Assembly (NCBI RefSeq): GCF_003334335.1 | Contig: NZ_QOWQ01000002.1 | DNA from: Escherichia coli | GTDB lineage: Bacteria > Pseudomonadota > Gammaproteobacteria > Enterobacterales > Enterobacteriaceae | Length of the DNA: 64,000 nt | Strand: one strand, 5' to 3' | Part shown: piece after piece, positions 50,050-50,421 of the stretch | How the letters are laid out: each line of letters starts with the position of its first letter | Numbering within the stretch: position 1 is the first letter of the stretch | The notes under the pieces: generated by a model | What the model was told of the DNA's origin: nothing | What the model saw: only the letters and a program-made list of their open reading frames with translations | The model's database searches: none | Translations under genes and position numbers: made by a program

Positions 50050-50153
50050 AAAACCATAGTGATGTTTTTTGACAATGTGTTAGCTCTTTATCAATAGGCC
50101 GCACGGTTGTTTGGTGGCGTCAAAATTGCCGAGGCGTTCCCTGAAGGCCGGGG

Positions 50154-50312
50154 CAGCCCACATGGATGTGGGCTGAGGGCGCGTTTTACAGGGATGTTAC
50201 CTCGCGCCCGACCCGGTAGCCGTAAGGGATAAGTCGAGGGCACCGCGCAGCGGCGATTTTGTTCGCCAGAGCCCGGGGGTGCAGGGGGCGGCGGCGATTG
50301 GCCGCCCCCTGC
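50154..50312. other. GC-rich hairpin-dense intergenic element of unknown function (candidate structured RNA or GC-rich repeat)
   Basis: Perfect 9-bp stem cagcccaca/tgtgggctg at 50154-50175, 7-bp stem gggcgcg/cgcgccc at 50177-50209, perfect 12-bp stem gcagggggcggc/gccgccccctgc at 50281-50312; GC content far above the AT-rich norm of neighbouring intergenic DNA. Confidence 0.4.
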
Positions 50313-50421
50313 GCGCTCCTTGCGCCAGTGATTATATGAAGCAATGCACATGACAGGAGCGCAACAGGATGAGAGACTGAAATATTCTCGTTATTTTCGG
50401 ACCTGATGACATTAATTAATT

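Follow-up and report, generated by a model that had tools for sequence, protein, structure and literature searches.

The 64,000-nucleotide stretch of Escherichia coli contig NZ_QOWQ01000002.1 (assembly GCF_003334335.1) that was analyzed here, hereafter the window, carries a GC-rich, hairpin-dense segment between dusC and yohP. We identify this segment as the TRIP1c copy of the enterobacterial TRIP1 repeat, also known as RRS-dusC, a non-coding DNA element that folds strand-specifically, and put the probability of this assignment at about 90%. The identity is already published, so the result is a rediscovery and adds no new entity. RefSeq annotates nothing at TRIP1c, and for this reason the repeat looked unexplained to a sequence-only reading of the window, which recognized neither the published identity nor the published function and considered instead a structured small RNA, a member of a boxC-like repeat family or a remnant of an inserted element. 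The replication mechanism discussed below is that of the published work; what this analysis shows is the identity, strand, fold and conservation of the element. The family-wide constraints bear on which structure acts, G-quadruplex (G4) or hairpins, and on a possible protein that reads the loops.

TRIP1 is the subject of Rudd 1999 and of Li 2024, the latter describing three types of the repeat in K-12, TRIP1a, b and c, with 84-94% mutual identity and 62-65% G+C (PMC10888264). In that description TRIP1c is 273 bp long, lies 43 bp past the stop codon of yohI/dusC and ends 363 bp ahead of the start of yohG/mdtQ (PMC10888264). In the window, dusC stops at 50049 and the element starts 43 bp on, has a length of 273 bp and is followed after 363 bp by the mdtQ ATG at 50729, while 200-nt windows over it have a GC content of 0.655-0.66. 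The fit of distances, length and GC to Li 2024 therefore supports the identity. A 481-bp query (49990-50470) is 100% identical to a K-12 derivative. Aligned over 265 nt, the element itself and the K-12 aqpZ-lysO copy are 94.7% identical; for a putP-efeU copy the identity is 87.6%. The nhmmer E-values reach 1e-104, and all three K-12 loci (aqpZ-lysO, putP-efeU and dusC-yohP) were recovered.

Pham, Cox, Goodman and colleagues name the lysO and dusC copies RRS ('replication risk sequence') and describe them as near-perfect 222-bp GC-rich repeats (Pham 2023, PMC10287960; Pham 2024, PMC11194060). Pham 2024 places a G4-forming motif, GGGGGTGCAGGGGGCGGCGG, on the lagging-strand template (PMC11194060). 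The window holds this motif on its + strand (Table 1), and a search for GGGGGTGCAGGGGGCGGCGG on the - strand of the window gave no match. We take the + strand of the window to be the lagging-strand template because of its biases in GC skew (+0.034), FtsK-orienting polar sequences (KOPS, 6:0) and Chi sites (13:6). This is in agreement with MG1655, where dusC lies on the minus strand at 2.229 Mb. The derived MG1655 positions are 2,229,122-2,229,394 for TRIP1c and 915,016-915,281 for TRIP1a. With dif assumed at ~1.589 Mb in MG1655, TRIP1c is ~640 kb and TRIP1a ~674 kb away from it. The RRS pair is reported to sit ~650 kb either side of dif, with the two copies mutually inverted (PMC11194060).

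RRS blocks Pol I, II, III and IV (PMC11194060) and, according to PMC10287960 and PMC11194060, causes lagging-strand gaps of up to ~2 kb that are loaded with RecA and SSB. A 2026 preprint by Kusi-Appauh (PMC13308219) reports that gap formation was seen directly and that the C strand, too, gives rise to gaps when serving as lagging-strand template, in about two-thirds of encounters. At least one RRS copy seems conditionally essential, with shifts in supercoiling when both copies are removed or inverted (PMC11194060), and deletion of both failed without compensating amplification (Pham 2024, PMC11194060). The RRS authors hypothesize that such a short-lived gap serves to ease topological stress close to the Ter macrodomain (PMC11194060). 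This published mechanism is the best supported one for the copy in the window. As others have shown, the G-rich strand, here the window's + strand, folds quickly once the fork exposes the lagging-strand template as single-stranded DNA (ssDNA). Lagging-strand synthesis then stalls and restarts downstream, which leaves a gap of up to ~2 kb with SSB and RecA. This gap might act, following the hypothesis of others, as a transient topological 'relief valve' near Ter. Only one further bacterial sequence has been reported to programme gaps after replication, and RRS flanks the Ter macrodomain.

The sequence-only reading had called 50100-50330 strikingly GC-rich and pointed to three inverted repeats within it. 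Both observations hold. The GC content of 50100-50330 is 0.675, a richness reached by only 0.009% of the 231-nt windows in the 64 kb, of which the richest (0.680) starts at 50096, and the stems of 9, 7 and 12 bp can all be read from the letters where they had been placed. The stretch is GC-rich as delimited then, but its limits are not those of the feature, which extends from 50093 to 50365. Folded as DNA, the 273-nt element is more stable than its dinucleotide shuffles (z = -6.0); as RNA, z is -5.5 for the + strand and -5.05 for the - strand. None of 200 shuffles was as stable as the element, for DNA and for RNA of either strand alike.

Table 1 Positions of TRIP1c, its structural parts, neighboring genes and related units. 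Positions refer to the window unless a comparison locus (L number) is given.
Feature	Position	Strand	Description
Whole TRIP1c repeat (RRS-dusC)	50093..50365	+	+ strand is the G-rich 'RRS-G4' strand
Core common with the K-12 lysO copy (TRIP1a / RRS-lysO)	50110..50330	+	221 nt ungapped, at most 2 mismatches to L004
Published G4-forming motif GGGGGTGCAGGGGGCGGCGG	50275..50294	+	exact match, once in the window, 0 expected by chance
Domain I	50109..50272	+	long closing stem round a junction bearing hairpins 1 and 2; TwoAYGGAY-like architecture
Domain I closing stem	50109-50128 with 50254-50272; 50129-50135 with 50233-50239; 50138-50141 with 50226-50229		RNAalifold and pair counts, 78 copies
Hairpin 1, read directly	50154-50175	+	perfect 9-bp stem CAGCCCACA/TGTGGGCTG, loop TGGA
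Hairpin 1, family view	50154..50175	+	stem CAGCCCAC(A)/(T)GTGGGCTG, loop ATGGAT, GGA at 50164-50166
Hairpin 2, outer stem	50177-50183 with 50203-50209	+	7 bp, GGGCGCG/CGCGCCC
Hairpin 2, interior	50177..50209	+	internal loop, inner pairs AC/GT, hexaloop AGGGAT, GGA at 50192-50194
12-bp G/C hairpin	50281-50292 with 50301-50312	+	perfect stem GCAGGGGGCGGC/GCCGCCCCCTGC, 8-nt loop
Terminal hairpin	50314..50361	+	consensus helix 11, CGCTCCT/AGGAGCG, with a loop of ~34 nt that varies; forms the repeat's 3' end
Inverted block of ~340 bp (TRIP1c and ~35 bp each side)	50060..50398		local alignment to the reverse complement of the L010 spacer (3989-4289)
dusC	49102..50049	+	tRNA-dihydrouridine(16) synthase; reads towards the element; open reading frame list and annotation of a K-12-derived record
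yohP	50422..50505	-	27-aa small membrane protein, convergent with dusC
86-aa Pro/Gly/Arg-rich open reading frame	50091..50351	-	open frame from GC-rich composition, not a gene
Tandem TRIP1-like units	L097 1843-3448; L086 1537-2272		Klebsiella-type contigs

We aligned 78 distinct copies of the repeat. For covariation we used paralogous copies, collected by scanning metagenomes for a pattern taken from a neutral region within the repeat (GGCGATTTTGNNNGCCNGAGCC), since orthologous spacers outside Escherichia hold no copy. The RNAalifold consensus comprises 67 pairs. They form a long closing stem and a junction from which hairpins 1 and 2 emerge, followed by three more hairpins: a small one, the one of 12 bp and a terminal one. 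Standard pairs occupy 99.6% of the 5184 cells of this fold, with compensatory double changes at 16 of the 67 pairs (289 cells), and none of 500 shuffles matches any of the observed values for pairing or covariation. Sliding the 3' partners by 1-3 columns as a control left 36-44% of cells paired and at most 3 covarying pairs. Covariation reaches into the individual helices: a hairpin 1 stem pair is A-T in 29 and G-C in 48 copies and two more pairs change in 4 copies, the inner closing pair of hairpin 2 is A-T in 34 and G-C in 44, and the terminal hairpin, paired in 98.2% of cells, has one covarying pair (C-G in 47 copies, T-A in 22).

The loops are conserved as well. Loop 1, CATGGATG, is invariant in all 77 copies that have hairpin 1, and loop 2 reads CA-N-GGA-Y-G in 77 of 78, with N being G in 37, C in 19, A in 12, T in 5 and absent in 5. 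Both are ANGGAN hexaloops closed by AC/GU, represented in this copy by UUACAGGGAUGU and CCACAUGGAUGU. On the G-rich strand, G·T wobbles outnumber A·C by 124 to 18 cells, and it is therefore the G-rich strand that folds. This bias fits the published ssDNA model and an RNA made from the G-rich strand equally well.

The 12-bp hairpin and the published G4 motif overlap at the motif's second G-run. Compensatory changes occur at 4 of the 10 scored pairs of this hairpin; selection is visible on the hairpin and not on the G-runs. The median maximum of G4Hunter over the 78 copies is 1.76 on the + strand versus -1.24 for the C-rich side. We infer that selection preserves the entire fold of several hairpins, both conserved GGA loops included, and not just the G-runs.

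By blastn against 5426 complete E. coli genomes, the repeat is present in every one, at a median of 3 places per genome (range 1-10). The sequence-only reading had proposed a copy-number search of this kind and had itself held that a multi-copy extragenic repeat is not a locus-specific RNA. Its candidate of a locus-specific structured small RNA is thus unsupported, given multiple copies in 5426 of 5426 genomes and no promoter or terminator found. Its second candidate, a GC-rich extragenic repeat family, was right as to the repeat and wrong as to boxC, the family being TRIP1. According to Li 2024, 99% of E. coli copies are at five fixed loci (PMC10888264). Copies lie in unrelated spacers, including aqpZ-lysO, putP-efeU, ybhB-proY, the spacer between an ion-channel gene and pcaC, and others; the other loci were reached via matches on captured chromosomal fragments and mislabelled chromosomes in a plasmid collection. 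We considered a phage or plasmid origin and rejected it, as there was no phage match and the 'plasmid' matches examined are chromosomal segments or mislabelled chromosomes. With the element set as +, the upstream gene is on the + strand at 16 loci and on the - strand at 8, and the downstream gene on the - strand at 16 and on the + strand at 3. The copies are mostly found between convergent genes, and their orientation shows no clear sense bias relative to neighboring transcription.

We further examined 80 dusC loci from GTDB species. Within Escherichia, loci L006-L008, L010 and L011 carry a full or near-full copy, whereas in E. albertii (L009) a remnant of ~95 nt from the 3' end is all that is left, and yohP has been lost. 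Two natural deletions were observed. In Escherichia sp. MOD1-EC7003 (L007 3981-4258) hairpin 1 is gone through a ~25-nt deletion. Some E. coli have a short aqpZ-lysO copy (L002 2990-3140) in which the central ~125 bp are deleted between CCGGGG direct repeats, like K-12 TRIP1b. Such variants are ready-made mutants for the study of function.

At dusC itself the orientation of the element is not fixed. Of the 5426 complete E. coli genomes, 3309 have the arrangement of the window and 1999 (37%), NZ_CP116409.1 and Nissle-type strains being examples, have the block inverted between intact dusC and yohP, both of which stay in place. The inversion is also found in E. whittamii and another Escherichia species (L010, L008, L011 and L009 were the loci compared). 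Recombination between TRIP1a and TRIP1c was rejected as its cause, since that exchange swaps the flanks (PMC10888264) and here both are kept.

A number of observations weigh against the reading of this segment as a strand-specifically folding replication element. The gap mechanism, as proposed for this copy, derives wholly from published experiments. A canonical four-run G3+ quadruplex is present in 0 of 78 copies, and in 8 of the 78 both G5 runs have A in place of G, accompanied by partner C-to-T changes that restore the 12-bp hairpin (the natural GGGAG...GAGGG/CCCTC variant); a G4-only model moreover leaves the conserved GGA loops unexplained. If dusC keeps its orientation, the G-rich strand would become leading-strand template through the inversion. 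Over 19 distinct loci, orientation relative to local GC skew is 12 positive to 7 negative, which is not significant; for KOPS the ratio is 13:7, no clear bias either. Outside Escherichia, neither blastn nor nhmmer detects a copy less than 3 kb from dusC at any of 74 loci (L012-L085), which come from Citrobacter, Salmonella, Klebsiella, Kluyvera, Enterobacter, Pectobacterium, Yersinia, Serratia, Erwinia and others. When RRS positioning is said in print to be conserved in enterobacteria, this therefore cannot refer to the dusC locus. Finally, Klebsiella-type genomes hold many copies, some of them in tandem. The objection from the inversion is softened by the C strand's reduced but real gap activity, which may make both orientations tolerable. 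Conserved loops, compensated G-run changes and unfixed orientation are features beyond the G4 model. In the accessible portions of the four TRIP1/RRS papers we found neither the covariation of the fold, the loop conservation, the G-run compensation and the 37% inversion nor the absence of dusC copies outside Escherichia and the abundance in Klebsiella. A term search of Li 2024 and Pham 2024 returned no mention of CsrA, TwoAYGGAY, Rfam or Klebsiella.

The distribution of copies bears on whether TRIP1 is a selfish or passively spread intergenic repeat, similar to repetitive extragenic palindromes (REP) and bacterial interspersed mosaic elements (BIME) or to miniature inverted-repeat transposable elements, with the gaps a tolerated or co-opted by-product and with fold and loops serving as the recognition feature of a mobilizing or recombining protein on ssDNA. 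Copy number varies from 1 to 10 in E. coli and reaches 13 places in K. pneumoniae CP125156.1, a 5.37-Mb chromosome filed as a plasmid in which two units lie 437 bp apart. One Klebsiella-type contig has a tandem array of three TRIP1-like units with a period of ~654 bp, alternating with pairs of ~117-bp REP-like units. Unrelated insertion spacers, either orientation at one and the same site, the preference for convergent-gene spacers where insertion harms least, the lack of dusC-adjacent copies outside Escherichia and internal deletions between short direct repeats all point in the same direction. However, we found no transposase, terminal inverted repeats or target-site duplication, no copy was present in phage records, and the 'plasmid' matches whose context was checked are chromosomal. 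The concentration of E. coli copies at five fixed loci (PMC10888264) and the compensating amplification required in the double deletion of Pham 2024 (PMC11194060) likewise speak against this reading, and the purifying and compensatory pattern over the whole fold exceeds that of a decaying relic. We regard a selfish or passive origin as doubtful, but as a live rival that does not exclude our identification.

The two hexaloops led to a different comparison. The hairpin 2 sequence UUACAGGGAUGU matches the CsrA consensus RUACARGGAUGU, obtained by in-vitro selection (SELEX), at 11 of 12 positions, with scores of 11/12 and 9/12 for the two loops, and the 28 nt between the two GGA loops are within the range of 10-63 nt bridged by one CsrA dimer. 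In an Rfam scan the gathering score of no family was reached. Only TwoAYGGAY (RF01731) recurs across copies, below threshold and because of the shared GGA-loop signature. It matches end to end, the window scoring 29.7 bits, L004 30.6 and L089 33.1 against a gathering score of 43, corresponding to E = 0.06 (2.5 kb, all 4227 families) or ~1e-5 for TwoAYGGAY alone. With the covariance model of TwoAYGGAY, none of the Klebsiella-type copies reaches E = 1. An AgvB-like match overlapping the end of TRIP1c (50339-50399, - strand; 22.9 bits versus 56; E = 0.22) was judged to be chance, as were matches to mir-1304 and to snoRNAs.

Weinberg 2010 described TwoAYGGAY as a very long P1 stem with two AYGGAY loops, having multi-copy seeds in Psychromonas (P. 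ingrahamii NC_008709 is a seed genome). The Psychromonas seed sequences AAACAUGGAUGUUU and CCAG-UAC-AGGGAC-GUA-AUGU have the same layout as domain I of TRIP1. Loop 1 (AUGGAU) fits AYGGAY. Loop 2 (AGGGAU) departs from it by a G where Y is expected, yet the Weinberg seed includes AGGGAC and AGGGAU.

TRIP1 might be, or derive from, a structured RNA of the TwoAYGGAY type. If the G-rich strand is transcribed, here as a 3' extension of dusC, the two ANGGAN hexaloops of this RNA would bind a single CsrA dimer at both sites, and the RNA would either sponge CsrA or form a 3' end under CsrA control. The sub-threshold but full-length matches on three copies, the architecture common with the Psychromonas seed (long P1, AUGGAU loop, internal loop of hairpin 2 and UAC-AGGGAY-GUA) and the likeness to CsrA sites in consensus, AC/GU-closed hexaloop and spacing are consistent with this, as are stems that covary while the loops stay conserved and N varies freely, wobbles that favor the G-rich strand, and the lack of a terminator-like site between dusC and the element. 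Nevertheless, every TwoAYGGAY match remains under the gathering score, Klebsiella-type copies fall short of E = 1, and we did not find a promoter or terminator belonging to the element. In K-12, the copy at lysO runs antisense to the genes on either side, and the dusC copy is antisense to dusC in 37% of genomes. The gene table of an E. coli CsrA crosslinking and immunoprecipitation (CLIP) study (Potts 2017) gives 'No' for dusC and ybjE, and the available supplements hold no CLIP peak coordinates within either repeat. Since ssDNA also tolerates G·T, the wobble asymmetry cannot separate RNA from ssDNA, and the very stable stems are unlike the short ones (at most 4 bp) typical of SELEX ligands. 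An RNA of this kind at dusC is quite unlikely on these grounds; for the TRIP1 family as a whole, the strongly covarying fold and the loops resembling CsrA sites make an RNA reading worth stating, improbable as we consider it.

A related proposal keeps the element at the level of its fold. Selection would maintain not a G-quadruplex but a strand-specific multi-hairpin structure whose core is a GC-rich relative of TwoAYGGAY, and the CA-N-GGA-N-G hexaloops would be read by a protein. Candidate readers would be CsrA, acting on a transcript, or an ssDNA-hairpin-binding enzyme, acting on the lagging-strand template. We consider this proposal unlikely as a whole, its reader included. If it were true, an 'RNA' motif that is an orphan in Rfam would be linked to a DNA element programming replication gaps, or RRS would be linked to the Csr network.

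The remaining explanations concern the locus itself. On neither strand was a promoter-like site found in the element or upstream of it, and 49900-50750 contains 0 terminator-like sites on either strand, in line with the sequence-only reading, which had noted the lack of a U-tract typical of intrinsic terminators. The element could be a local 3'-end structure of dusC, yohP or both, that is, a transcription barrier or an mRNA-stabilizing cluster of hairpins in the manner of REP. Its place in a convergent-gene spacer 43 bp past the dusC stop, with no other terminator-like site there, and the location of most family members at gene 3' ends agree with such a role. A U-tract follows none of the stems, however, the same element occurs in either orientation and next to unrelated genes, and a simple barrier needs no conserved loop sequences. 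This renders a purely local function very unlikely.

A coding role can be set aside with greater confidence. The sequence-only reading saw no convincing coding potential, the 86-aa minus-strand frame being the only one, and the family supports this judgment: although the frame is uninterrupted from ATG to stop in the window, only 11 of 78 homologous copies preserve it as a single frame, and in 51 frameshifts split it over two or more frames. Open stretches of ~100 codons on both strands simply reflect the rarity of stop codons at such GC, and substitutions follow base pairs, not codons. A protein product is so improbable as to be negligible, and a coding role was rejected because the frame is not conserved.

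Among known repeats, boxC shares with TRIP1 that both are GC-rich, imperfectly palindromic intergenic repeats of E. coli. Identity with boxC was rejected by length and copy number, the only properties compared, as boxC has 56 bp and 22-32 copies (PMC2267715) versus 273 bp and a median of 3 places. REP/BIME elements resemble TRIP1 as structured intergenic repeats located mostly at gene 3' ends, and REP-like units form mosaic tandem arrays with TRIP1-like units in Klebsiella-type contigs. In contrast to TRIP1, REPs measure ~35-40 bp and number hundreds per E. coli genome, against ~3 copies of TRIP1, and the REP copies of the window show no sequence similarity to the element. The statement of the sequence-only reading that the segment does not match the REP consensus (GCCGGATG...CATCCGGC palindrome) is correct, since the REP families of the window (D3, D4 and D6) exclude 50093-50365. 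REPs occur elsewhere in the window, at 42808, 42924, 46722 and 59875. The corresponding REP/BIME copies at 42781-42984 (a tandem pair, 116 bp apart), 46722-46757 and 59848-59935 are unrelated to TRIP1c. REP-like sequence also follows each of two paralogous ~1.3-kb segments of the window (22135-23451 and 25324-26693), which lie 3.19 kb apart and share 74-80% identity. We presume these to be the nucleoside transporter genes nupX and psuT.

TwoAYGGAY resembles TRIP1 in its long closing P1, its two A-Y/G-GGA-Y loops, the internal-loop layout of hairpin 2, the one or two unpaired A's that separate the hairpins, and the occurrence of several copies per genome. TRIP1 differs in being far more GC-rich and in having two extra 3' hairpins and a G-rich tract outside the model. 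Moreover, TwoAYGGAY is filed as an RNA without known function, whereas RRS has demonstrated DNA-level activity. With CsrB, CsrC and RsmZ, TRIP1 shares ANGGAN hexaloops closed by AC/GU, a CsrA-like consensus and, at 28 nt, suitable spacing. It has two GGA sites compared to ~18-22 in CsrB and, unlike CsrB and CsrC, neither a detected promoter or terminator nor CLIP support, nor a conserved orientation to neighboring transcription.

With TRIP1/RRS as published, this copy agrees in locus, strand, length, flanks, GC, G4 motif and core. A gap or nick programmed via a G-quadruplex has been claimed for just one other sequence from bacteria, the pilE G4 of Neisseria gonorrhoeae (cited in PMC11194060). 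That sequence is a short canonical G4 which depends on a small RNA promoter and serves antigenic variation, whereas RRS is a multi-hairpin repeat.

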